Source: Patescibacteria group bacterium (GTDB lineage: Bacteria; Patescibacteriota; Patescibacteriia; JAHJFT01). Taken from it: a stretch of 64,000 bases of DNA. Position 1 is the stretch's first letter, and every line of letters starts with the position of its first letter. Of this stretch, positions 6,321 to 46,317 are shown piece by piece. Both the position numbers and the translations under genes were made by a program. Below the pieces are notes generated by a model. That model was given only the letters and a program-made list of their open reading frames with translations. It was not told the origin of the DNA and ran no database searches. The stretch spans positions 587,014 through 651,013 of the forward strand of contig JAQTTB010000001.1 in NCBI GenBank assembly GCA_028710985.1, in the 5' to 3' direction.

Positions 6321-7091
6321 ATGAACAATAAAATAATAATAGCCAACTGGAAAACATATTTATCCGTTTTTGAATCCGAAGAAATCGTGAGAGAGGTTTT
6401 GAAATTCGTAAAAAAACAAAAAGACATGCCCGAGCTCGTTTTTTGCCCGACATTTACGGCAATTCCGTCGGTTGCGAAAATTATCGGCGGCTCTGGAAAA
6501 ATGAAACTTGGTGCGCAGAACATGAACTGGCGCGACCGCGGACCCTTTACCGGCGAAGTCTCGCCAATCACGCTTAAGGAATTCGGCTGCGAGTTTGTTA
6601 TTCTTGGTCATTCGGAACGGAGAGTACATTATCACGAGACCGATCTCGAAATCCATGAGCGCATCAAACTCGCTCTGGAATACGGTCTGATCCCGGTGGT
6701 CTGCGTCGGCGAAACTGCGGAGGAAAGGCGAGCCGGACGTCGCGACGAAGTGGTGCGTCGTCAGGTAACCGAATCGCTCGGCATCCTTGACCTCAAGGGC
6801 AGTGAGCGTATTATTATTGCGTATGAGCCGGTTTGGGCAATCGGTTCCGGCCAGGCCGTCGCCGCCGATGACGTCGAAAGTTCGCATATGTCAATCAGGC
6901 AGACCATTATTGATAATTATTCCGAATCGGAATTTAATCTGCATTTTCAAATTATTTACGGAGGCAGCGTCGATGCCGCAAATCTTGAAGGCTTTCTGGA
7001 AAAGGAAATCGTGAGCGGCGTGCTCGTCGGGTCAGCAAGTTCTCGGACAGAAAGCCTAATCAGTATCATCGATGGCTGTATAAATTATTAA
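6321..7091 (+). CDS. tpiA: triosephosphate isomerase
   Basis: IIANWK, ILGHSERR and AYEPVWAIGSG motifs. Confidence 0.9.
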   Translation: MNNKIIIANWKTYLSVFESEEIVREVLKFVKKQKDMPELVFCPTFTAIPSVAKIIGGSGKMKLGAQNMNWRDRGPFTGEVSPITLKEFGCEFVILGHSERRVHYHETDLEIHERIKLALEYGLIPVVCVGETAEERRAGRRDEVVRRQVTESLGILDLKGSERIIIAYEPVWAIGSGQAVAADDVESSHMSIRQTIIDNYSESEFNLHFQIIYGGSVDAANLEGFLEKEIVSGVLVGSASSRTESLISIIDGCINY

Positions 7092-7093
7092 GT

Positions 7094-7987
7094 ATGATTT
7101 ATTGGATTTGTTTAATTGTCTTAGTGATCGCGGTTGTCGTTATCGCGGTGATCATATTCCGTAAATTTTCGCATCTTGCAATTATCGACGTCGATACAAT
7201 GATTCATGAAAAACAGGCAAAGATAAAGGAAGATATTATCTGGCGCCGGGTCGCGAGAAAAACCAAGGAGCGTAGCGAGCCAATTATTTCGGTCGCTTCG
7301 GAAATAAAAAGGGGAGTTGGTGTATTTTTGGAAAATATTTACAAGCGTGCCAAGGTTCTTGAAAAAAAGTATGCCATGGAACGCCGTGCCTCAAAGGCGT
7401 CGCGTCCGGTATCCGCACCCGCATCGCAGATTGGTGCCATCGTGAGCGAAGCGGAATCGTTATTTGATCAGGGGAAAATGGCCGAGGCTGAAGAAAAATA
7501 CATTGAAGCCATCGGAATCGACGGCCGTAATCCCGAAGCGTATTGGGGGCTTGGAAAAGTCTATATTGAAACAAAACAGTTTGACGAAGCCAAGCAGTCT
7601 TTGGATTTTTTAATAAAACTCGGCAAGGCCGACGACCGCGTGTACGAGACTCTGGGGGACATCGCGTTTTCAGAGAACCGATATAAAGACGCTAAGGAAT
7701 ATTATCTTATCGCCATCGCGAGAAATGATTCAGTCGTAAAATATTACTTATCGCTTGCCAAAACCTATGCCGCTCTGGACGATCGCTCGAATGCGCAGTC
7801 CACGCTCTTTGAAGCCAGGGAGATAGAGCCGAAGAACCCGAAAACCCTTGACTTCCTGATAGAAAATAGTATAATATTAGGCAACAAAGAGCAGGCGCAG
7901 CGGATTTTTGAAGAATTTCGCGCCCTGAATCCGGAAAATCCCAAATTTTCAGAATGGGAAATGGCCATTGAAAAGATGAAGAAATAA
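7094..7987 (+). CDS. membrane-anchored TPR-repeat protein
   Basis: N-terminal TM helix; TPR-like repeats (AEEKYIEAIGIDGRNPEAYWGLG...). Confidence 0.65.
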   Translation: MIYWICLIVLVIAVVVIAVIIFRKFSHLAIIDVDTMIHEKQAKIKEDIIWRRVARKTKERSEPIISVASEIKRGVGVFLENIYKRAKVLEKKYAMERRASKASRPVSAPASQIGAIVSEAESLFDQGKMAEAEEKYIEAIGIDGRNPEAYWGLGKVYIETKQFDEAKQSLDFLIKLGKADDRVYETLGDIAFSENRYKDAKEYYLIAIARNDSVVKYYLSLAKTYAALDDRSNAQSTLFEAREIEPKNPKTLDFLIENSIILGNKEQAQRIFEEFRALNPENPKFSEWEMAIEKMKK

Positions 7988-7990
7988 TTT

Positions 7991-8108
7991 GCCCAAGTAG
8001 CTCCTGCCTTCGTCCCGACTTCGTCGGGACTTCGGCAAGGCAAGCAGTTGGCACCCGCCCGCCACGCAAGCCGAGCTTGCGAGGCGTTGCGGGCGGGGAG
8101 CAACTCCA
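7991..8108 (+). pseudogene. tRNA-Thr(GGU) fragment copy interrupted by a ~94-nt GC-rich hairpin insertion
   Basis: gcccaagtagctc (identical to the 5' end of the intact tRNA at 8135), then an insertion containing hairpins gtcccgacttcgtcgggac and cccgcccgcc...gcgggcggg, then gagcaactcca, then divergence. Confidence 0.6.
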
Positions 8109-8134
8109 CACATTTCATAAAAAAATAATTTTTT

Positions 8135-8210
8135 GCCCAAGTAGCTCAGTTGGCAGAGCAACTCCATGGTAAGGAGTAGGTCAGCAGTTCAAATCTGCTC
8201 TTGGGCTCCA
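8135..8210 (+). tRNA. tRNA-Thr (anticodon GGU)
   Basis: Acceptor stem gcccaag/cttgggc, anticodon loop aTGGTaa, T-loop gttcaaatc, encoded CCA. Confidence 0.8.
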
Positions 8211-8214
8211 CTGC

Positions 8215-8300
8215 GGGTGGTTACCAAAGCAGTCAACTGGGGCAGACTGTAAATCTGCTGGCTCACGCCTTCGTAGGTGCGAATCCTACACCACCCACCA
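8215..8300 (+). tRNA. tRNA-Tyr (anticodon GUA), long variable arm
   Basis: Acceptor stem gggtggt/accaccc, anticodon loop ctGTAaa, long extra arm, CCA. Confidence 0.8.
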
Positions 8301-8301
8301 C

Positions 8302-8486
8302 GCTGATGTAGCTCAGTGGTAAGAGCAACGGTTTTGCCTGCCCGCCATAGCCCAAGCCGATGTAGCTCAGTGGTAGAGCAACGGTTTTGTAAACCGTAGG
8401 TCGTGGGTTCAAATCCCACCGTCGGCTAAGGCGACGGCAGGCGGGTAAACCGTAGGTCGTGGGTTCAAATCCCACCGTCGGCTCCA
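8302..8486 (+). other. composite tRNA-Thr(UGU) locus: 35-nt 5' half and 41-nt 3' half (with CCA) separated by a 109-nt insert that encodes a complete inner tRNA-Thr(UGU)
   Basis: 8302-8336 is acceptor, D-arm and anticodon stem through ttTG; 8446-8486 is Taa through T-arm, acceptor and CCA. Joining the two gives a canonical 76-nt tRNA. The insert is bounded by complementary 10-mers cctgcccgcc (8337-8346) and ggcaggcggg (8436-8445). Confidence 0.6.
8356..8427 (+). tRNA. tRNA-Thr (anticodon UGU), inner intact copy
   Basis: Acceptor stem gccgatg/cgtcggc, anticodon loop ttTGTaa, T-loop ggttcaaatcc. Confidence 0.8.
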
Positions 8487-8516
8487 TAGATAATTATTTA
8501 CGAATACCGTAAGCCT

Positions 8517-8672
8517 ATGTCGCAAGAAAATTTGATTAAGTTAGAGTGTGCTGATTGCAAAAAAATCAACTACTACTCAAAAAAGAACAAGAAAAAACTG
8601 AAAGAAAGGCTGCAGATGAAAAAATTCTGTAAAACCTGCAAGAAGCACACCGGCCATAAAGAAACCAAATAA
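8517..8672 (+). CDS. rpmG: 50S ribosomal protein L33 (51 aa; not in the ORF track)
   Basis: Translation MSQENLIKLECADCKKINYYSKKNKKKLKERLQMKKFCKTCKKHTGHKETK; two CxxC pairs typical of L33; conserved position before tRNA-Trp. Confidence 0.8.
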   Translation: MSQENLIKLECADCKKINYYSKKNKKKLKERLQMKKFCKTCKKHTGHKETK

Positions 8673-8690
8673 TCTGGTTTCTTTAAGTAT

Positions 8691-8763
8691 GGGGGCGTAA
8701 TTCAGTGGCAGAATGTCGGTCTCACCCGTCGCTCGCGAGCGACGGGTGTCTCCAAAACCGAAT
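8691..8763 (+). pseudogene. tRNA-Trp 5' fragment copy with a 25-nt palindromic insertion in the anticodon stem
   Basis: gggggcgtaattcagtggcagaatgtcggtctc + acccgtcgctcgcgagcgacgggtg + tctccaaaaccgaat, then divergence; matches the intact tRNA-Trp 37 nt downstream. Confidence 0.6.
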
Positions 8764-8799
8764 GAGCAAACAAGATTTATCAAAAGAGTTTAAATTCAT

Positions 8800-8873
8800 G
8801 GGGGCGTAATTCAGTGGCAGAATGTCGGTCTCCAAAACCGAATACGTGGGTTCGATTCCTACCGCCCCTGCCA
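8800..8873 (+). tRNA. tRNA-Trp (anticodon CCA)
   Basis: Acceptor stem gggggcg/cgcccct, anticodon loop ctCCAaa, T-loop ggttcgattcc, CCA. Confidence 0.8.
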
Positions 8874-8907
8874 AAAAATTCATCCCGATCGCGGGGTGAA
8901 TTTTTTG
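8874..8907 (+). terminator. rho-independent terminator after tRNA-Trp
   Basis: Hairpin ttcatcccgatcgcggggtgaa followed by TTTTTT. Confidence 0.5.
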
Positions 8908-8917
8908 ATATAGCAAA

Positions 8918-9018
8918 GGTAGGAATCGAAGGGCGCGAGAACCCCGACGAAATGTCGGGGTGGTGCGCAGCGCCCCGGACCGCGAGTCGGAGCGAGCGGG
9001 ATTCCTACCGCCCCTGCC
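8918..9018 (+). repeat. stem-loop built from an inverted plus a direct copy of the tRNA-Trp 3' end
   Basis: ggtaggaatcgaa (reverse complement of the T-arm) ... GC-rich loop ... gattcctaccgcccctgcca (identical to the tRNA-Trp 3' end); followed by hairpin aatcccgactttcgtcgggatt (9062-9083), the same hairpin family as at 8019. Confidence 0.55.
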
Positions 9019-9104
9019 AAAAAATCCTCTCGTAAGAAAGGTTTTTTTGTTTTAACAAAGAATCCCGACTTTCGTCGGGATTCTCTTAAGATCGAGCTAT
9101 CCAA

Positions 9105-9284
9105 TTAGTATTGTCTTGGAGGTCGATTTTTTCGCATTTCGCGATGGCAGTCTTTGCAGAGCAGCCGATCGAGACGGGCCGGATCCGGTTCAAAAGGCAG
9201 TTCTGTGATCTCGGCTCCGCATTTGGAGCAGACCCAGGTGCCCTTGAACATCTGGCGCGGTGCGAAATTGTTGTCGCTGTACAT
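9105..9284 (-). CDS. small CxxC-x20-CxxC zinc-ribbon protein (59 aa; not in the ORF track)
   Basis: Minus-strand translation MYSDNNFAPRQMFKGTWVCSKCGAEITELPFEPDPARLDRLLCKDCHREMRKNRPPRQY; resembles the CxxC-x17-CxxC small protein family. Confidence 0.5.
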   Translation of the reverse strand: MYSDNNFAPRQMFKGTWVCSKCGAEITELPFEPDPARLDRLLCKDCHREMRKNRPPRQY

Positions 9285-9498
9285 TTTCGTTGACCTTATG
9301 TTTTGCTCTTCTTAACCATCCAAGACATTAATATATGTAAATATATAATACGGATTATTAAGCTTACGCAAAACTTATGAATTATGAGCCTATTATAGCA
9401 CAATAGTCCATATCTGTCAAGCCGCCGCGGGGCGCTCGCTGTTGATTCGCGCAATTGGCGTATCAAGTCTTTTCGGATATAATAATAACATATTTTTT

Positions 9499-11205
9499 AT
9501 GTCAGCGATTTTCATACAACTAAGTTTGGTTTTGGCCGTGGCAGTGGCGGCTTCACTCATCATGAGGTTACTGCGTCAACCGCTCATCATCGGCTATATC
9601 ATCACCGGCATCATCGTCGGGCCGATGGTCCTGGGTTTGGTGCGGCAGGGCGATTCGATTGAGGCGTTTGCCCACATCGGGGTCGCACTGCTTCTTTTTA
9701 TTGTCGGCTTGGGGCTTCATCCTAAAATGATTCGCGATGTCGGGGGAGTGGCGGTGGTGACCGGACTCGGACAGATTATATTTACCACGGTCATCGGCTG
9801 GGTAATCGGTGTTTTGCTCGGCTATGCGTCGCTCACCGCGCTATATCTTGCGTTCGCTTTCACGATGAGCAGCACCATTATTATTTTGCGCCTCTTGCAT
9901 GCCAAGGAAGACCAGGATACACTCTACGGCCGGATTGCCATCGGATTCCTTCTGGTGCAGGACTTTGTCGCCATGATTGTTTTTATGGTTCTTGCGAGCG
10001 CGCGTGGTGGCGGTCCACCCGAAATGCTGATTCTTTCCGTGTTTTTGAAAATCGTAGTTGTTGTTGCCGTGCTCTTGATGCTGGTCAAGTTCATCGTGCC
10101 GCTCATCGACCGTTTCTTGGCGCCGAGCAGCGAGTTATTATTTATTTTTGCGATCAGCGTTTGTTTTATTTTCGCCAGCCTATTTGAATATTTTGATTTT
10201 TCTCGCGAACTCGGCGCGCTCGTTGCCGGTTTGGCGCTTTCGTTTTCGCCCTGCCACCGCGAAATGGCGACGCGGCTCAAACCGCTCCGGGATTTTTTCC
10301 TGGTCGCATTTTTTATCGTGCTCGGCGCGGGTATGAGCCTTGTTGATATTGAAAAATCAATCCCCATGATCGTGTTTTTTTCGGCATTCATACTGATCGG
10401 CAATCCGCTTATTGTCTATCTCATAATGACGTGCATGGGTTATACCAAGAAAACCAGCTTTTTCGCCGGGCTCACGGTCGCGCAGATCAGTGAATTCTCG
10501 CTTATACTTCTCGGCATGGGCGTGTCTCTTGGCCACATTCCGGCAAGCATCGTCGGGCCGGCAACCGTGGTTGGCGTTCTCACGATCGGCATCTCTACTT
10601 ACATGATAATGCACAATCACACCCTGTATCGCATTTTGGAAAGATTTCTTTCATTCCTTGCGCCGTGGCATAAACCGACGCGGGAAAAAGGCGCCGCATT
10701 CCGCCCTAAAAAGATTGACGTTCTTGTTCTCGGCAGCCATCGCCTGGGTGGCGGCATCGTGAATATGCTCAAAGAGCTGAAAGTAAATTTTCTAGTTATT
10801 GATCACGATCCGCTGGTTATTCACGCGTTGGAAAAACAAAAAGTTCCGGCCGTCTTCGGCTCGGCCGACGATATTTCGTTTTTGGATCATCTTCCGCTCA
10901 AAGAGACGCGCCTCATTATTTCAACCATACCTGACGTTGAGACAAATGAATTCTTGGTTCATTATGCCAAGACCGCCGCGCCAGCGGCCAATGTTGTCTG
11001 CGTGGCCAATCATGCGTCGCACGCCAAGAATTTATATGACGCCGGTGCCGCCTATGTGGTAATGCCGCCGTATCTTGGCCGAAAATATATTATTGATCTC
11101 GTGAAGCGAAATCGTTTGGATCCGTCAAAATATCGTGAAGAAAAAGCCTGCCACATTAAAGATTTAAGATACATTGGAAACGGTGCGAATTCGGACGGGG
11201 ATTAG
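9499..11205 (+). CDS. Kef-type K+/H+ antiporter (CPA2) with C-terminal RCK/TrkA-N domain
   Basis: About 12 TM helices then Rossmann motif VLVLGSHRLGGGIV. Confidence 0.8.
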   Translation: MSAIFIQLSLVLAVAVAASLIMRLLRQPLIIGYIITGIIVGPMVLGLVRQGDSIEAFAHIGVALLLFIVGLGLHPKMIRDVGGVAVVTGLGQIIFTTVIGWVIGVLLGYASLTALYLAFAFTMSSTIIILRLLHAKEDQDTLYGRIAIGFLLVQDFVAMIVFMVLASARGGGPPEMLILSVFLKIVVVVAVLLMLVKFIVPLIDRFLAPSSELLFIFAISVCFIFASLFEYFDFSRELGALVAGLALSFSPCHREMATRLKPLRDFFLVAFFIVLGAGMSLVDIEKSIPMIVFFSAFILIGNPLIVYLIMTCMGYTKKTSFFAGLTVAQISEFSLILLGMGVSLGHIPASIVGPATVVGVLTIGISTYMIMHNHTLYRILERFLSFLAPWHKPTREKGAAFRPKKIDVLVLGSHRLGGGIVNMLKELKVNFLVIDHDPLVIHALEKQKVPAVFGSADDISFLDHLPLKETRLIISTIPDVETNEFLVHYAKTAAPAANVVCVANHASHAKNLYDAGAAYVVMPPYLGRKYIIDLVKRNRLDPSKYREEKACHIKDLRYIGNGANSDGD

Positions 11206-25924: not shown

Positions 25925-25975
25925 GCAAGCTGCCTATTGAAAAAAATCTTGTTTTATTCTAAAATATGGGTACTT

Positions 25976-27511
25976 ATGGCATTAACGCTTTATAGAAAAT
26001 ATCGGCCGCAAAAGTTCTCCGAAGTTACGAATCAGGAGCATGTTAAGATTACCCTGGAGAATCAGATAACCATGGGCCAGGTGGCTCATGCCTATCTTTT
26101 TGCCGGGCCGCGCGGCGTGGGCAAAACCACCCTGGCGCGCATTCTGGCTAAGGCGGTCAACTGCCTGGAGCGCAAAGACAAGGAATCCGAACCCTGCAAC
26201 AAGTGCCGTTCCTGCGAAGAAATCGTGGCCAACCGGGCCATGGATATCGTGGAAATTGACGCCGCCTCCCACACCGGCGTCGAGAACGTGCGCGCCAATA
26301 TTATTGAAAACGTCCGTTTTAGCCCGGTGAGCCTCAAGCACAAGGTTTTCATCATTGACGAGGCACATATGCTTTCAACCTCGGCGTTCAACGCCCTGCT
26401 TAAGACCCTGGAAGAGCCGCCCGAGCGCGTCATCTTTATTCTCGCCACCACCGAGGCGCACAAAATTCCATCCACCATTATTTCGCGCTGCCAGCGCTTT
26501 GATTTCAAAAAGATCAGCGTAAATGAAATCGCCAAGCGCCTTGAATATATTGTCGCCGAGGAGGGGATTAAGGTTGAGCGTCCGGTGCTTGAACGCATCG
26601 CCCGGCTTTCCGAGGGCTGCGTGCGCGATTCCGAAAGCCTGCTCGCGCAGATTCTCGCGCTTGATGATAAAAAGATTTCCATGGAGCAGGCCGAGCTTGT
26701 TTTGCCGCGCACGAATTTTGACCAGGTGATTGAATTCTTGTCCGCCGTGAGCCGCCGCGATGCTCGCTCCGGCGTTGAGCTCGTGAACCGGCTTGCCGAA
26801 GACGGAGTTGACATGCGGCAGTTTTCGTCCGAGTGCCTGGAATTTATGCGCAATCTTCTTCTTGCGAAAATCGCCGGGCAGAACGCCGAACTCATGGCCG
26901 GCTGGAGCACGGAAATTCAGAATACCATTAACCAGATTCTTTCGGCCTGGACAGCCGCGGATATTGCCCGCGTGATTGAGCTCATGCTCGTAAAACAGCA
27001 CGACCTGAAATCCGCGTCGCCGGCGCAATTGCCGCTCGAGTTATTCGTGATTGAGGCAATCGGCGAGGAAGCGCCGTCTTTTAAGCCGGCAGAAAAGATT
27101 GCCGCCCCGGCTCCGGAAAAAAAATTCCGCGAACCCCGCCTGCCATGTCCGGCAAGGCCTGGCGGGCAGGCCCGCGTAAGCCTTGACCAAATTCATGAGA
27201 AGTGGCACGATTTCCTCTCCGGTCTTTCTGACGCCAATCAGTCGCTCAATCTGATATTGAGCGTGAGCAAGCCCACGGCAATGAACGGCGATACTTTGGA
27301 AATTGCTTGCAAATATAAATTTCATTGTGACCAGATTATGGCCGAACGCAACCGCCGCCCTGCCGAAGACGCGCTCTCCGCGCTGCTCGGCGAAAAAATT
27401 ATGATTCAGGCCGTGGTGCAGGACGATTTGCCAGTTGAACTCGCCGAAGAAGTCCCGGCCGCCACGGTCAATTCCGCGCTCCAGGAATTCGGCGGAAAGG
27501 TGATTGAATGA
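25976..27511 (+). CDS. dnaX: DNA polymerase III subunit gamma/tau
   Basis: LYRKYRPQKF, Walker A GPRGVGKTT, SRCQRF. Confidence 0.9.
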   Translation: MALTLYRKYRPQKFSEVTNQEHVKITLENQITMGQVAHAYLFAGPRGVGKTTLARILAKAVNCLERKDKESEPCNKCRSCEEIVANRAMDIVEIDAASHTGVENVRANIIENVRFSPVSLKHKVFIIDEAHMLSTSAFNALLKTLEEPPERVIFILATTEAHKIPSTIISRCQRFDFKKISVNEIAKRLEYIVAEEGIKVERPVLERIARLSEGCVRDSESLLAQILALDDKKISMEQAELVLPRTNFDQVIEFLSAVSRRDARSGVELVNRLAEDGVDMRQFSSECLEFMRNLLLAKIAGQNAELMAGWSTEIQNTINQILSAWTAADIARVIELMLVKQHDLKSASPAQLPLELFVIEAIGEEAPSFKPAEKIAAPAPEKKFREPRLPCPARPGGQARVSLDQIHEKWHDFLSGLSDANQSLNLILSVSKPTAMNGDTLEIACKYKFHCDQIMAERNRRPAEDALSALLGEKIMIQAVVQDDLPVELAEEVPAATVNSALQEFGGKVIE

Positions 27512-27521
27512 TTTTAAATAT

Positions 27522-27691
27522 TCGGAGATCGTCTAACGGCAGCCTGTCCGCCTCGGGAGGAGACGCCAGGTTTCCGCCAAAGGCGGACAGGCCCGCCATA
27601 GGCGGGCATGCTGGCCCTGGTAACCTGCCTGCCGGCAGGCAGGTCATGGTTCTCCGCCAGCGGGTGGATTCGCCTCCGGCGAAGAATCCAT
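27522..27691 (+). pseudogene. tRNA-Gln(CUG) pseudogene fragmented by four GC-rich palindromic insertions
   Basis: Segments tcggagatcgtctaacgg / acgccaggtt / ctggccctggtaa / tcatggttc / aatccat are colinear with the intact tRNA-Gln at 27952. They are separated by inserts of 23, 38, 20 and 32 nt, including cctgcctgccggcaggcagg, and the 3' acceptor strand is missing. Confidence 0.6.
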
Positions 27692-27699
27692 TTGAATTT

Positions 27700-27948
27700 A
27701 TGTCGTGCTTTATATACGTGATTATAAGTTGTAGCCACGGCAATAGATACGTCGGTAGTACTGATTGCGTCGAAAATAGGTTGGAAGAACACAATAGGGG
27801 AAGATGCCGCTATACATCAGGGAGAAGGCCGTGGGAGCTAGTCCACTCGGAGGAATTTGATACAAGAGCCGAAGCGATGAAACGAGAAAAATTTTTGAAA
27901 TCAGGCCAGGGAAGAAAGTATTTAGATGAAATTTTAAAGAAGAAATAA
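27700..27948 (+). CDS. GIY-YIG nuclease family protein (82 aa)
   Basis: FIYVIISCSHGNRYVGSTDCVENRLEEHNRG...REKFLKSGQGRKYL is the typical small GIY-YIG; the ORF-track N-terminal extension covers the pseudo-tRNA and is rejected. Confidence 0.7.
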   Translation: MSCFIYVIISCSHGNRYVGSTDCVENRLEEHNRGRCRYTSGRRPWELVHSEEFDTRAEAMKREKFLKSGQGRKYLDEILKKK

Positions 27949-27951
27949 TAT

Positions 27952-28025
27952 TCGGAGATCGTCTAATGGTAGGACGCCAGGTTCTGGCCCTGGTAATCAT
28001 GGTTCGAATCCATGTCTCCGAGCCA
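27952..28025 (+). tRNA. tRNA-Gln (anticodon CUG)
   Basis: Acceptor stem tcggaga/tctccga, D-stem gtct/ggac, anticodon loop ttCTGgc, T-loop ggttcgaatcc, CCA. Confidence 0.75.
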
Positions 28026-28079: not shown

Positions 28080-28394
28080 ATGCGCGAGCACGATCGTCGT
28101 TCAATCCGATTACCGACCTACGATTATAATTCGCCGGGCTATTATTATTTAACAATATGCACCGCCGATCGGTTATGCGTCTTTGGTCAAATCGAAGATA
28201 AGAAAATGGTTCTAAACGAAATTGGCAAAATTGCTGACAGACGGTGGAGGCAGATTCCGTTCCGTTTTCCGAATGTAAAATTAGATGTTTATGTCATCAT
28301 GCCGAATCATATACACGGAATCGTACAAATAATGGATAACGACGCCGTAGGGGCGATTCATGAATCGCCCCTACACGGTCTGGAGAGGCGATGA
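28080..28394 (+). CDS. IS200-like Y1 transposase, RAYT-like (REP-associated tyrosine transposase), C-terminally truncated (104 aa)
   Basis: RLPTYDYNSPGYYYLTICT...VIMPNHIHGIV (HxH motif); the C-terminal catalytic-Tyr helix is absent. Confidence 0.65.
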   Translation: MREHDRRSIRLPTYDYNSPGYYYLTICTADRLCVFGQIEDKKMVLNEIGKIADRRWRQIPFRFPNVKLDVYVIMPNHIHGIVQIMDNDAVGAIHESPLHGLERR

Positions 28395-33193: not shown

Positions 33194-33250
33194 GTAACGG
33201 CAAAATAACCGTGTAGAGACGCGACATGTCGCGTCTCTACACGGTTATTT
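33194..33250 (+). terminator. long perfect hairpin (19-bp stem) with T-rich tail
   Basis: aaccgtgtagagacgcgac atg tcgcgtctctacacggtt attt. Confidence 0.45.
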
Positions 33251-36050: not shown

Positions 36051-37421
36051 TTAGAATTGCACCATGACCTCATTGCTGTATGCGCCGCACGAGCCGTTTT
36101 CATTATGCGCGCAGATGCGGAAATGGTACTCACCCGCGGCTTGAAGCGGGTAAAAATAATGCCGGCCGTACGAATAGGGGAAGTGGAAATAATTATCCGG
36201 TGGAAAAGTCGGATTCGTCGTTGTGCCTTGGATGATATTAAAGCCGTATGGCGATTCTATATTTTCAATTATCCAATTGAGATAAACGCCGCGTTCGTTC
36301 GGAGAGGCGTAGAGCAGAATTTTCGCCTCTTGTTTTATTTCAACCGGTTTGGCTGCCGGCGCGACTGGAGCCGCGGCTGCCGGTTCGGATGCCGCACCGA
36401 CGACCGCCGGGGCGGTTTCAGCCGGAGCAAAGATGTTTTCCAGCCGGCCGAGTGGCTGGCCGGAGAGTGAATCAAGCTCGCGGTTCCATGAGTAAAATTC
36501 TATTGCCAGTTCGCTGTCCGTAATTGACGAAATTGAGGTTGATTGCTGTTTCGAGTCGGCGCGATTTTCGATCACCGCCTTTTCGCCTTGGAGCAGGATC
36601 CGCTCGCTGGTTCCGGACGCGCCGTACATTTTTAAATTCACATTGCTTTCAAGCGCCCGGACCGCAAGTAGGGTCGATTCATGAATCGACCCCGCGCCTT
36701 CAATTTCCACGCCAAAAGCCGTGCCGAGCGCCGTGGTCTCGGCATTGAGCGAGCGCACGGTGTAGACAAGTGAGCCGCTTTTACTCACGCGGCTGTAGCT
36801 CTCACCAACTATCTGCTGAATGATGATGGAGTTTTCATTGGCTTCTTCAACGATAATATGCGCGTTCGCGCCAAGCCGTATCGCGCTGCCGTCGCTGAAA
36901 GCAAGAACCGCGCGGCTTGCCTCGCCGGTACGTATTTGGCGCTGGGCCGTGACGAGCGTCTCCACGGCGGCAGATGCCCAATAATTATTTTCCCAAATTT
37001 CAACCGTTCCTTGCGTGTAAACAAGAGTTGCCATAATTGGCGCCCCGACGGGCGTCGGGGGCGGGATAATGAAATTATTATTTGTTATTACCGGGTCCGT
37101 TCCGAATGGCACAAAGAATCTGATTCCGAGATAAATAGCGAGCACGATCGCGGAGAAAGCGAACGTCAAACCCGAGGCGTAACGATAGATTGATTTTTTG
37201 CGCGCGACACGCTCCTGTTTTTCGTCGGCCCAGCCATAATACAGTTTCTCTTTCAGAGTTTCGGCAAAAAAAGCGTCAATTTCAATATTCCTTGAGTCAA
37301 CGAGTCGGGTCTGGGCGAGTTTGCCGCCCAACTCAAAAAGCTCCTTATCTTCCGGGCCCAATTTTTCGGGTCGGCTGTCAAGAAAGGCTTTATTTAATTT
37401 ATTGGCGTTAAAATTCAGCAT
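36051..37421 (-). CDS. anti-sigma factor, FecR-like, single TM, C-terminal beta-rich domain
   Basis: Follows the ECF sigma gene with a 14-nt overlap; TM helix; FecR-like segment. Confidence 0.65.
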   Translation of the reverse strand: MLNFNANKLNKAFLDSRPEKLGPEDKELFELGGKLAQTRLVDSRNIEIDAFFAETLKEKLYYGWADEKQERVARKKSIYRYASGLTFAFSAIVLAIYLGIRFFVPFGTDPVITNNNFIIPPPTPVGAPIMATLVYTQGTVEIWENNYWASAAVETLVTAQRQIRTGEASRAVLAFSDGSAIRLGANAHIIVEEANENSIIIQQIVGESYSRVSKSGSLVYTVRSLNAETTALGTAFGVEIEGAGSIHESTLLAVRALESNVNLKMYGASGTSERILLQGEKAVIENRADSKQQSTSISSITDSELAIEFYSWNRELDSLSGQPLGRLENIFAPAETAPAVVGAASEPAAAAPVAPAAKPVEIKQEAKILLYASPNERGVYLNWIIENIESPYGFNIIQGTTTNPTFPPDNYFHFPYSYGRHYFYPLQAAGEYHFRICAHNENGSCGAYSNEVMVQF

Positions 37422-43401: not shown

Positions 43402-45171
43402 ATGAACAATCTCCGCAACTTTTGCATCATTGCCCATATCGACCACGGTAAGTCCACGCTGGCTGACCGTTTTTTAGAATTAACAGGCACGGTTGATAAA
43501 AGAAAAATGAAAGAGCAGATTCTGGACAGCATGGATCTTGAGCGCGAAAAGGGGATCACCATCAAACTCCAGCCCGTGCGCATGGAATACGAGGGATATA
43601 TTTTAAATCTGATTGACACTCCCGGGCATGTTGATTTTAATTACGAAGTTTCGCGGTCATTGGCCGCGGTTGAGGGCGCGATTCTCTTGGTTGACGCGAC
43701 CCAGGGCGTGCAGGCGCAGACACTCGGCAATCTGTATATGGCCCTGGAGCAGAATCTCGCCATCATTCCGGTATTGAATAAAATTGATCTGCAAAATGCC
43801 GATGTCGAACGCTGCCGCGAGGAGCTCGTGAAACTCATCGGCTGTAAGCGCGAAGAGATTTTTGAAGTTTCGGCCAAGACCGGCAAAAATGTTGAACAAG
43901 TACTCCGGGCTGTGATTCGCGAAGTTCCGCCCCCGTTCGGCGAGGCGTCCGCTCCCCTCCAAGCTTTAATTTTCGATTCCGACTACGATGAATATAAAGG
44001 CGTTGTCGCCGACGTGCGTTTGAAAAACGGGGAGCTGTATCCCGGTGACCGCATCCGGCTCGTCGGCACCGCCGCGCCGACCGAAGCGCTTGAAGTCGGA
44101 TATTTCCGGCCCCAGCTTGTGAAATCCGCCAAACTCGCGGCCGGCGACATCGGTTACATCGTCACGAGCCTTCGGACGATCAAGGATTGCCGCGTCGGCG
44201 ATACCATCACCCTGGAAAGCAATCCGGCGGCGCTTCTGCCCGGATACAAAGAGGTCAGGCCCATGGTTTATGCCGGCATTTTTCCGCGCGACGGCGCCGA
44301 GTACGCCCGCCTGCGCGAGGCCATGGACAAGTTAAAATTAAATGACGCGGCCCTCGCTTTTGAACCCGAACGCTCGCAGGCGCTCGGCTTCGGCTTCCGT
44401 TGCGGGCTCCTCGGCATGCTTCATCTTGAAATCGTGCAAGAGCGGCTCCGGCGCGAATACAATCTGGATCTCGTGGTCACCATTCCGTCGGTGGCTTACA
44501 AAATATTTGACACCAAGGGAGAAGAGATTACCATCAAGTCCGCGCAGGAGATGCCCGACCCGTCGCGCGTTGAGCATATCGAAGAGCCGTGGGTGAGCGT
44601 GGACATCGTTACCCCCAAAGAGTTTGTCGGCAATATCATGTCGCTCGTCTCCGAACGCCGCGGCATTTACAAAAACACCGAATATCTGGATCCGAGCCGC
44701 ACGATTATGCATTATGACATTCCGCTCGCCGCCGTGATTGTTGATTTTTACGATAAACTTAAGAGCGCGTCATCCGGATACGCTTCGTTAAATTACGAAT
44801 TCATCGGCTATCGCCAGGCCAAGATAATCAAGCTCACGATCCTGGTGGCCGAAGAAACGGTTGAAGCCCTGTCCATGCTTGTGCCCGAAGATGAAGCCTA
44901 CCGCGAAGGCAAGCGCATCGTCACCCTGCTCAAAGAAAGCCTGCCGCGCCAGCAGTTTGTCATCAAAATTCAGGCCGCGATCGGCGGCAAGATTATCGCC
45001 GCCGAGCGGCTTTCCGCCTTCCGCAAGGATGTCATCGCCAAACTCTACGGCGGGGACGTCACGCGCAAAAACAAACTTCTGGAAAAACAGAAAAAGGGAA
45101 AGAAAAAAATGATGTCCCGCGGCCACGTGGAAATCCCGACTGAAACATTTTTGAAAGTACTTAAAAGATAA
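43402..45171 (+). CDS. lepA: elongation factor 4
   Basis: NFCIIAHIDHGKSTLADR G-domain and LepA C-terminal domain. Confidence 0.92.
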   Translation: MNNLRNFCIIAHIDHGKSTLADRFLELTGTVDKRKMKEQILDSMDLEREKGITIKLQPVRMEYEGYILNLIDTPGHVDFNYEVSRSLAAVEGAILLVDATQGVQAQTLGNLYMALEQNLAIIPVLNKIDLQNADVERCREELVKLIGCKREEIFEVSAKTGKNVEQVLRAVIREVPPPFGEASAPLQALIFDSDYDEYKGVVADVRLKNGELYPGDRIRLVGTAAPTEALEVGYFRPQLVKSAKLAAGDIGYIVTSLRTIKDCRVGDTITLESNPAALLPGYKEVRPMVYAGIFPRDGAEYARLREAMDKLKLNDAALAFEPERSQALGFGFRCGLLGMLHLEIVQERLRREYNLDLVVTIPSVAYKIFDTKGEEITIKSAQEMPDPSRVEHIEEPWVSVDIVTPKEFVGNIMSLVSERRGIYKNTEYLDPSRTIMHYDIPLAAVIVDFYDKLKSASSGYASLNYEFIGYRQAKIIKLTILVAEETVEALSMLVPEDEAYREGKRIVTLLKESLPRQQFVIKIQAAIGGKIIAAERLSAFRKDVIAKLYGGDVTRKNKLLEKQKKGKKKMMSRGHVEIPTETFLKVLKR

Positions 45172-45183
45172 ATTTTTTTAATT

Positions 45184-45873
45184 ATGCCATTAAATATAAG
45201 CTATAGTGCAGAATTTGAAAAACGAAGAATAAAAAACACGATTAAAAAATTGTCTTGGTATAAAAAATTAGGGTACTCGCCCTGTTTCCCGAAAAATATT
45301 AATCCCCAAAATGATAATTTAAAAAAAATATACGCCGCTTTTAAAAATGAATACGACGAGGCAGATTATAAAAGAGCCGCTAGGGAGATTAACGAAAAAT
45401 TTTCTAAAATTGAAAGTACTTTTTACGATAAGCTAGAGAAAATATGCGGTAAAAAAATCAAAAGAAATTTTAAATTGATACTTACTAAATATGGCGTTGG
45501 CGGTTCTTATTCATCGCCAAATACAATAATATTCAACATTAAATGGAAGTTTTCAAACTCGGTTAATATAGTTTTGCATGAAATTACGCACCTAGTAATT
45601 GAACCGCACATAAAAAAATATCAAGTTCAACATAATGAAAAAGAACGGATAGTCGATTTGATTTTGACATCAAAGCCCATTGGATTGAAAAATTATAAAA
45701 TGCAACAAAGAGGAGAAGAATATAAGAAATTTTTTGACCCGCTATTTAAAAAATATTTTAAACCGCCCATAGGCAGTTTTTTTAAAAAATTAGCACGACT
45801 ACACAGAAATCCTTCCCTGCCCCTCCCTCCTGCCTGCCGACAGGCAGGTTATAAAGGGAGGGGACCGGAATAG
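45184..45873 (+). CDS. AT-rich hypothetical protein with HEITH (HExxH) motif; 3' end runs into GC-rich hairpins
   Basis: ~30% GC ORF against a ~52% background; LHEITHLV; the C-terminal ~20 codons coincide with palindromes cctgcctgccgacaggcagg and cccctcctt...aaggagggg. Confidence 0.45.
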   Translation: MPLNISYSAEFEKRRIKNTIKKLSWYKKLGYSPCFPKNINPQNDNLKKIYAAFKNEYDEADYKRAAREINEKFSKIESTFYDKLEKICGKKIKRNFKLILTKYGVGGSYSSPNTIIFNIKWKFSNSVNIVLHEITHLVIEPHIKKYQVQHNEKERIVDLILTSKPIGLKNYKMQQRGEEYKKFFDPLFKKYFKPPIGSFFKKLARLHRNPSLPLPPACRQAGYKGRGPE

Positions 45874-45953
45874 CACGGCCGCAGTATCTTGTTCCCCTCC
45901 TTAATAAAGGAGGGGAAAGGGGAGGATTTTACAAGTGGATTTTAGAACAGCGC

Positions 45954-46317
45954 ATGAAATATTATCCGACCTACAATTCAAAATTAAAACCAACGGCACG
46001 CGTTTTGCGGAACAGTATGACTCCCGCGGAAATACTTCTCTGGTCAGGGTTGAAAGCCAAGCAATTCTGCGGATTGCAATTTTACCGGCAGCGTCCGCTC
46101 GGCAATTATATTGTTGATTTTTATTGCCCCGCCAAAAAGCTCGTGATTGAAGTTGATGGCGGGCATCATTGTTATGATGACAAGCAGGTCGCGAACGACA
46201 AAAAGAGACGCTTATCTTAAAAAAGTTTTTAAATTAAAAATATTGCGATTTAATAATGTTGATATCTTGAATAGCATTGACGAAGTGCTCGAGAGAATTG
46301 CGGAACAAATATATTGA
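45954..46317 (+). pseudogene. DUF559 (Vsr-like endonuclease domain) gene with a frameshift in an A-run
   Basis: Frame 1 (45954-46220) gives LLWSGLKAKQFCGLQFYRQRPLGNYIVDFYCPAKKLVIEVDGGHH...DKKRRLS*; the conserved C-terminus LKKVFKLKILRFNNVDILNSIDEVLERI continues in the +1 frame to 46317; the shift falls in ttaaaaaag near 46215. Confidence 0.6.

Follow-up and report, generated by a model that had tools for sequence, protein, structure and literature searches.

The subject of this analysis is a transfer RNA (tRNA) gene, tRNA-Thr(UGU), that is split in its anticodon loop by an insert which itself carries a complete tRNA-Thr(UGU) gene. The gene lies within a 64,000-nt stretch of DNA, here called the window, that covers positions 587,014-651,013 (forward strand) of contig JAQTTB010000001.1 in assembly GCA_028710985.1, from a Patescibacteria group bacterium. 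Coordinates without a label are window positions, and labels such as L054 denote loci or contigs recovered for comparison. The insert, or cassette, spans 8337-8445 and is 109 nt long, 72 nt of these being a tRNA. The features of the locus are as follows:

8302-8336, + strand: 5' half of the outer tRNA-Thr(UGU), positions 1-35, 35 nt (ARAGORN on the joined halves)
8337-8355, + strand: left arm CCTGCCCGCC (8337-8346) and spacer ATAGCCCAA
8356-8427, + strand: inner, complete tRNA-Thr(UGU), ending at discriminator 73 (Rfam RF00005)
8428-8445, + strand: spacer AAGGCGAC and right arm GGCAGGCGGG, which pairs with the left arm
8446-8486, + strand: 3' half of the outer tRNA-Thr(UGU), positions 36-73 plus CCA, 41 nt

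ARAGORN and Rfam agree on this arrangement, which had been proposed from the sequence alone (hereafter the original prediction). When 8302-8336 and 8446-8486 are joined, ARAGORN folds the resulting 76 nt into a canonical cloverleaf tRNA-Thr(UGU) with an encoded CCA, as had been predicted. The inner tRNA is called at 8355-8428 by ARAGORN and at 8356-8427 by Rfam (RF00005, 79 bits, E=5e-17). The predicted identity of the two 3' halves is borne out by an exact 39-nt direct repeat (8389-8427 = 8445-8483), and the copies agree through position 73. The 5' halves differ at two places, a C3 to T change and one extra A in the D loop, both in the outer copy, which is thus marked by T3 and by GGTAAGAGC with the extra A; overall identity of the inner and outer copies is 96%. 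CCA is encoded by the outer 3' half and by all four other tRNAs of the window; the inner copy has no encoded CCA (GGCT followed by aag). The end of the left spacer, CCAA, resembles the CCAC upstream of the outer copy. The insertion point lies between positions 35 and 36 or between 34 and 35, owing to a 1-nt (G) ambiguity.

The bounding 10-mers (cctgcccgcc and ggcaggcggg), originally described as complementary, do pair, and in two registers, but they are not exact reverse complements. In the register first proposed nine of ten pairs form, one G-U included, with one C-A mismatch; the alternative register pairs CCUGCC with GGCAGG and CGCC with GGCG around a 2-nt bulge. At minimum free energy (-87.9 kcal/mol), 8302-8486 folds as two perfectly nested cloverleaves, and the arm helix stacks on the outer anticodon stem. 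Compared with shuffled sequences the complementarity of the arms is only moderately significant, because a C-rich and a G-rich arm pair even when shuffled. Chance is ruled out as an issue by the exact 39-nt repeat and the two full tRNA folds. What the original prediction missed is the window-wide and lineage-wide pattern to which this locus belongs.

Recurrence of nested tRNA genes

The junction of 5' half and left arm, GAGCAACNGTYTTGCCYGCC, was used as the query of a metagenome scan, and at least 120 stretches matched. The tally of nests is based on 122 junction matches, comprising the matches listed from one metagenome scan and the window, and a nest was scored where an ARAGORN-valid tRNA-Thr(UGU) begins 13-29 nt past the junction. 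Among these matches 50 (42 of them unique) are nests at the same site with the same arms (CCYGCC.../...GGCRGG) and inserts typically of ~94-124 nt; the remaining matches listed are either deeper nests disrupted by hairpins or fortuitous hits to coding sequence. In most of the nests listed, the acceptor and T stems of the inner tRNA are not those of the outer one. A consensus fold of 12 nests contains six to seven double-sided compensatory changes at each of the outer acceptor pairs 4-7, across the insert, and compensatory changes likewise at the inner acceptor pairs, together with a nearly invariant arm helix of CC(C/U)GCC with GGC(G/A)GG. The differing inner and outer stems and the co-varying outer halves indicate that a distinct tRNA was placed within a formerly functional, lineage-specific gene. 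One subfamily (L108, L121/L152, L131, and L175) has a common defect by the right arm (GGGG-TAAAT-AGGT) with differing outer acceptor stems, which fits co-transfer of flanking exon sequence by recombination. Carriage by phage was considered and dropped, as the sole match among viral_contigs (L203) is a chance match without a tRNA.

Several loci contain nests of more than two layers, in the manner of a Russian doll (L054, L119, and L181). In L119 (minus strand, around 2400) the D arm of the second tRNA-Thr(UGU) cassette holds a third, and L054 (9430-9962) and L181 contain repeated units of 5' half plus arm or of arm plus 3' half; copy numbers in these three nests are uncertain because of assembly gaps.

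A separate scan, anchored on the L33 gene, yielded 80 loci, nearly all from Patescibacteria genomes (Uhrbacteria, Falkowbacteria, and others). In two of the relatives, L054 and L065, tRNA-Thr(UGU) is nested at this same site of the anticodon loop, between arms of the same kind. Across 248 tRNAs from the 80 Patescibacteria loci and the window, partial copies show a pronounced polarity. Where a fragment has the tRNA 5' end, it lies upstream of the intact gene in 24 cases against 2; where it has the 3' end, it lies downstream in 15 against 2. This polarity is that of nesting and rules out a simple tandem duplication followed by decay. The original prediction had named a simple tandem pair of tRNA-Thr genes in related genomes, together with small-RNA reads from the inner tRNA only, as the finding that would undo it, and no such pair was seen in these relatives.

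Homology breaks in the partial copies cluster at loop positions 13/14, 19-21, 31-36, 44-46, and 51-56. Past the break the sequence almost always begins with YCCGCC or CCTGCC and forms a GC hairpin. Hairpins without any cargo are found at loop positions of many redundant tRNA fragments, and 64% of GC hairpins of this type lie within 500 nt of a tRNA, against ~23% expected. An apparent strand bias of the hairpins (C-rich arm first) was dropped as an argument, since a hairpin reads alike on either strand.

Both the cargo-less hairpins and their concentration near tRNAs speak for a local repair scar, in which a broken anticodon loop would have received GC-rich palindromic filler and been patched by the cell's own tRNA copy. 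Hairpin insertion into loops would then be a recurrent mutational process, and the nests its survivable outcomes. The near identity of the copies in the window (39/39 in the 3' half, two differences in the 5' half) points the same way, as do the 'CCA(a/c)G' that the inner copy has in common with the upstream flank of the outer copy and the occurrence of near-identical arms with different inner tRNAs. The fully compensated stem differences between inner and outer tRNAs in most related nests are, however, unlike copying followed by decay, and the filler CCYGCC.../...GGCRGG is constant across many genomes with no known source or mechanism. The flanking defect common to different outer tRNAs in addition suggests transfer between lineages. 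A repair scar is therefore regarded as unlikely.

The state of the outer copies was compared in the 39 unique nests, among the matches listed, that are not cut by a contig end. Both outer halves are kept in 17, the outer 3' half is missing in 12, and the outer 5' half is disrupted by hairpins in 10. The 3' strand of the outer anticodon stem is missing in L108, L121, L131, and L175, pair 1-72 of the outer copy is mismatched in L160, and every loop of the outer copy of L065 contains a hairpin. ARAGORN accepts the inner tRNA in every nest scored, which is not independent evidence because such acceptance was the scoring criterion; in the related pair L181/L187 a compensatory change is seen in the acceptor stem of the inner tRNA. 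From these comparisons the favoured view is that the inner gene would be the working copy and the outer halves relics, and splicing of the outer tRNA appears unlikely. Two of the outcomes entertained in the original prediction, a processing substrate giving one tRNA plus fragments and a rearrangement scar, are accordingly favoured by the often degraded outer copies of the relatives.

Interrupted tRNA copies elsewhere in the window

The tRNA-Thr(UGU) locus is not alone in the window, where hairpin-interrupted partial copies adjoin the intact genes for tRNA-Thr(GGU), tRNA-Trp, and tRNA-Gln. These copies and their neighbours are the following:

7991-8108, + strand: interrupted 5' copy of tRNA-Thr(GGU), positions 1-32
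8135-8210, + strand: intact tRNA-Thr(GGU), in the tRNA cluster
8215-8300, + strand: tRNA-Tyr, in the tRNA cluster
8517-8672, + strand: L33 gene, between the tRNA-Thr(UGU) locus and tRNA-Trp
8691-8763, + strand: 5' part of an outer tRNA-Trp, positions 1-44
8800-8873, + strand: intact tRNA-Trp, in the tRNA cluster
8918-9019, + strand: 3' part of the outer tRNA-Trp
27522-27691, + strand: interrupted copy of tRNA-Gln(CUG), positions 1 to ~64
27700-27948, + strand: open reading frame (ORF) for an 82-aa GIY-YIG nuclease of UPF0213 type (PF01541, 57.7 bits), between interrupted and intact tRNA-Gln
27952-28025, + strand: intact tRNA-Gln(CUG)

In the partial copy of tRNA-Thr(GGU), which sits 26 nt 5' of the intact gene, a GC-rich hairpin is inserted at either end of the D loop (8004-8045 and 8054-8097). 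The 5' part of tRNA-Trp contains a 26-nt perfect palindrome (8723-8748) within the anticodon loop and is followed by the intact gene. Its 3' part consists of the T-stem complement GGTAGGAATC, a GC-rich insert, and then GATTCCTACCGCCCCTGCCA (9000-9019), the 3' acceptor strand with CCA; tRNA-Trp is thus also nested, since its outer 3' part is downstream of the intact gene. Four GC-rich inserts interrupt the tRNA-Gln copy, at the D loop/stem boundary and in the anticodon, variable, and T loops. This copy is followed by the 82-aa GIY-YIG ORF and, a few bases later, by the intact tRNA-Gln. The partial copies of tRNA-Thr(GGU) and tRNA-Gln in the window have no 3' ends and hence cannot be spliced into tRNAs.

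In several relatives, tRNA-Trp and tRNA-Arg are also followed by displaced 3' fragments, at a distance of ~105-190 nt. A conserved GC-rich segment of ~90 nt (...ccgtaag(t/g)ccgttg...gcaccgaggagcctccgattcc), preceded by a terminator-like hairpin, separates tRNA-Trp from its displaced 3' fragment in L023 (11828-11955), L074 (10315-10435), and L076 (3206-3335). The window equivalent of this segment has no Rfam match; the segment could be a structured RNA or a conserved insert.

Repeats and hairpins of this kind fragment short-read assemblies and may thereby hide tRNA genes of such genomes, and an assembly artefact arising from repeats or strain mixtures has to be weighed. In its favour, Logan contigs of the source organism stop in these repeats, and N gaps lie within such arrays in L054 and L003, where layer counts are unreliable. 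Logan contigs from three other runs (the ends of L001/L002 and the starts of L204/L205) terminate at window positions of about 8081, 8845, and 8966, and exact-protein look-ups (L33 and a 59-aa zinc-ribbon protein) for independent contigs spanning the nest gave no match. An artefact is nevertheless scarcely credible. With two differences between its inner and outer 5' halves, the nest of the window is not a loop in the assembly graph, and the same layout is found with lineage-specific sequences in dozens of independent assemblies from various projects and assemblers. Logan assemblies from two other runs moreover match the neighbouring interrupted tRNA-Thr(GGU) copy base for base (7991-8081).

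Introns, integrative elements, and hairpin families

Bacterial tRNA genes are known to be interrupted by group I introns of 184-894 nt, including genuine introns at position 35/36 in tRNA genes of Patescibacteria (PMC13011429). The nest resembles these introns in its phylum, in the unusual position 35/36 (or 34/35, given the ambiguity), and in that the interrupted gene is missed by standard tRNA finders. It differs in being 109 nt long rather than at least 184 nt, in having no ribozyme core, and in consisting of a tRNA gene and two arms; self-splicing is not expected. A cmscan search of 7000-10000 at E<=1 listed only tRNAs and chance matches and no group I core, which together with the short insert rules out a group I intron and upholds the original prediction on this point. 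Read as 34/35, the junction is U34/G...G/G35, with the final exon base U and the final intron base G of group I introns, a reading that follows from the 1-nt ambiguity and is weak evidence.

Introns of the archaeal type are likewise ruled out, as both the single-sequence and the 12-sequence folds place the junctions within a continuous helix with a bulge of at most 1 nt and contain no bulge-helix-bulge, the motif of two 3-nt bulges around a 4-bp helix that the archaeal enzyme requires. The gene order of 5' half, insert, and 3' half is unpermuted, which excludes a permuted tRNA, and ARAGORN in intron mode calls nothing at the locus. The splicing-competent or permuted tRNA suggested in the original prediction thus finds no support in the absence of a group I core and bulge-helix-bulge and in the unpermuted order. 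Archaeal split, intron-containing, and permuted tRNA genes (Nanoarchaeum; bulge-helix-bulge; PMC3218864, PMC4033280) do share with the nest the GC-rich complements that unite the halves and the occurrence of inserts at many loop positions. In contrast to these genes the nest is bacterial, has no bulge-helix-bulge at its junctions, and is unpermuted, and the broken copies decay and always stand beside an intact copy of the same tRNA.

It could still be argued that the insert is a functional intron within a two-for-one gene, from which the outer halves would be ligated after excision so that two tRNA-Thr(UGU) are made; such a tRNA-encoding intron would be new for bacterial tRNA genes. Once joined, the outer halves form a flawless tRNA whose CCA is encoded, and the junctions are drawn together by the arm helix. 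The outer tRNAs of many relatives have perfect co-varying stems, the inner copy of L185 looks worse than the outer one, and genuine group I introns do occur at 35/36 in tRNA genes of Patescibacteria (PMC13011429). We consider this improbable. The insert has neither a group I core (E<=1) nor a bulge-helix-bulge, it falls well below 184-894 nt, and ARAGORN in intron mode makes no call; outer copies elsewhere are often truncated, carry hairpins in every loop, or miss the 3' strand of the anticodon stem, and the tRNA-Thr(GGU) and tRNA-Gln copies have no 3' ends at all.

Integrative elements typically insert at the anticodon or T loop of a tRNA gene, which is made whole again while a displaced piece of it stays behind (PMC4383910). 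The nest is like such Islander-type islands in that a tRNA gene is split at a loop-coding position, a working replacement is supplied, and the borders are marked by displaced gene fragments. It is unlike them in its insert of ~100 bp, which contains no integrase and a whole rather than a partial tRNA, in its GC-rich complementary bounding arms, and in keeping displaced 5' and 3' halves that meet at one point. The nest might on these grounds be a remnant of one or more integrase-mediated integrations, in which an island restored the tRNA gene and later lost its interior. Besides the targeting of tRNA loops, the restored gene, and the displaced fragment that are typical of integrative elements (PMC4383910), this account can draw on the displaced 3' fragments downstream of tRNA-Trp and tRNA-Arg in the relatives. 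It is nevertheless very improbable. Crossover within an identity block leaves a single displaced fragment, whereas here 5' and 3' halves flank a complete inner gene and abut at one point. No integrase and no island-sized interior was found in the nests examined (94-124 nt), no ORF fits the 109-nt insert, and att sites are not characterized by complementary arms rich in GC.

Short GC-rich hairpin units that recur in non-essential DNA include REP/REPIN sequences with their RAYT transposases, miniature inverted-repeat transposable elements (MITEs), and mitochondrial GC clusters. The nests have in common with these families the inverted-repeat ends around a short interior; the MITE-like terminal inverted repeats are CCTGCCCGCC and GGCAGGCGGG, which pair, and their helix is conserved in 12 nests. 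Unlike REP/REPIN sequences and MITEs, the units described here occur almost solely at loop positions of tRNA gene copies, are only loosely conserved in sequence (CCYGCC...GGCRGG), and have no clear target-site duplication, with at most one G common to the two junctions. The REP/REPIN, MITE, and GC-cluster families are not known to carry their own target gene as cargo.

A proposed target-restoring cassette and its candidate drivers

The locus is apparently a recurrent target-restoring insertion of a new and undescribed form. Full-text literature searches returned no account of one tRNA lying within another, nor of tRNA copies interrupted by hairpins in these bacteria, in keeping with the earlier view that the arrangement had not been described. 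The interpretation preferred here, with a probability of about 0.6, is a DNA-level and probably mobile cassette without an ORF, rather than an intron, that brings a replacement tRNA for the gene it splits. A cassette of ~109 bp, in which a complete tRNA-Thr(UGU) gene stands between a C-rich left and a G-rich right arm, would have entered the resident tRNA-Thr(UGU) gene at 35/36, where it would be tolerated because it carries its own copy of the gene that it splits. The cluster is probably transcribed as a single precursor, in which the arms would pair to form a GC-rich helix that closes off the inner tRNA domain. We propose that the enclosed domain keeps the duplicated halves from misfolding together. 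RNase P and a 3' end nuclease would then free the inner tRNA, with CCA added later, and the outer halves would be discarded as displaced remnants whose genes decay over time. The cassette belongs to a family that is widespread in Patescibacteria and would spread or re-form, most likely, by break-and-repair at loop-coding tRNA positions, that is, by homing-like recombination. Multi-layer nests would arise when an intact inner copy is struck again.

Several observations weigh against this interpretation. No enzyme is encoded by the cassette, and paired empty and filled sites within a single population were not recovered, so that mobility is something that we infer. The 96% identity of inner and outer copies in the window fits local self-copying as well as it does an incoming cassette. 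Near-identical arms enclose quite different inner tRNAs (L106, L160, and L172), which is awkward for one fixed travelling unit. Many outer tRNAs are still flawless, requiring either that events are frequent and recent or that some function is retained. L185 has a canonical-looking outer copy around an inner tRNA with an odd T loop and no GG in its D loop. A candidate driver considered below, the 82-aa GIY-YIG protein, has no DNA-binding domain. Recovered Logan contigs, finally, break inside the repeats or the palindrome, and none spans 8302-8486.

If the cassette interpretation is correct, the tRNA genes of tiny, streamlined genomes would be a battleground for very small selfish DNA, and a unit of 100 bp would survive in an essential single-copy gene only by bringing a spare. 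The insertions would explain the trouble that tRNA finders and completeness estimates have with Patescibacteria, and would offer a route for swapping tRNA alleles between lineages. They would also suggest a testable role for the widespread UPF0213 GIY-YIG proteins and a bacterial counterpart to the debate on the origin of archaeal split and intron-containing tRNA genes. The arms would represent a natural design in which a GC clamp insulates one tRNA fold within another.

Candidate drivers of the cassette are the tRNA-linked UPF0213 GIY-YIG nucleases. Among 34 GIY-YIG ORFs (~80 aa) surveyed across 1.9 Mb of related loci (L003-L198), 33 lie within 300 nt of a tRNA, all of them on the strand of that tRNA. 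Most of the ORFs end 4-20 nt before genes for tRNA-Tyr, -Trp, -Gln, -Ser, -Leu, or -Thr, and several, like the one at tRNA-Gln in the window, have an interrupted copy on one side and the intact gene on the other. Ahead of the ORFs there is often a tRNA 5' fragment together with a conserved double hairpin, TCCGCC-NNN-GGCGGA followed by CTCGCC-TCY-GGCGAG. There is no GIY-YIG ORF within or adjoining 8302-8486. The nearest solved structures to the 82-aa protein of the window are PDB 1YWL and 1ZG2.

A precedent for such a role is SegB, a GIY-YIG homing endonuclease of phages T4/T6, whose cuts within tRNA genes drive the amplification of segments, a full tRNA-Tyr included (PMC13096335). As in that system, the GIY-YIG genes here are tightly linked to tRNAs. 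The SegB motif covers the T loop, and the repeated segments generated by SegB hold a full tRNA. The tRNA-Thr(UGU) cassette differs in that it has no ORF and that the product is a nest rather than a tandem array, and the ~80-aa UPF0213 proteins consist of the catalytic domain only, belong to a cellular genome, and have a putative cleavage activity. A more explicit version of the cassette interpretation, in which minimal selfish cassettes home into the anticodon loop of the same tRNA species, complement the gene that is thereby destroyed, re-invade their own cargo so that Russian-doll nests build up, and are mobilized in trans by the tRNA-linked UPF0213 GIY-YIG nucleases, is put forward tentatively, at somewhat less than even odds. 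In a bolder version the outer tRNA would still be made, by a new bacterial splicing route.

An array in L003 (8684-9457) consists of a repeated unit, comprising a near-complete tRNA-Tyr with a double hairpin in its T loop and a GIY-YIG ORF, that precedes an intact tRNA-Tyr. One copy of the GIY-YIG ORF is degenerate and an N gap interrupts the array, which looks like a tandemly amplified endonuclease-tRNA module.

RAYT was also considered as a driver and set aside, the sole match being weak and truncated. This RAYT-like ORF (28080-28394) lies just 3' of tRNA-Gln in the window and scores 29.6 bits against NF047646, for which the cut-off is 80; RAYT-like ORFs number one only in the 1.9 Mb of related loci. 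The ORF at 28080-28394 ends in a palindrome, GTAGGGGCGATTCATGAATCGCCCCTAC (28347-28374), and a similar palindrome, GGGTCGATTCATGAATCGACCC, is found at 36671-36692.

Hairpins are also present in the window at some distance from tRNA genes. The longest palindrome of the window is a perfect one of 48 nt (33203-33250, AAATAACCGTGTAGAGACGCGACATGTCGCGTCTCTACACGGTTATTT), whose sequence is unrelated to the tRNA hairpins. At 45810-45917 a hairpin of the tRNA-insert family, cctgcctgccgacaggcagg, is flanked by ccctccct/agggaggg and lies in an AT-rich island (~36% GC, 45001-46000). A second hairpin there (45892-45917) is followed by an ORF for a putative endonuclease of DUF559/Vsr type, judged by eye. A GC-rich stretch with the same CCCGCCTGCC / GGCGGGCAGG motifs (27135-27175) is located in the linker region of a dnaX-like ORF (25937-27511) and may be an insert tolerated within a coding region.

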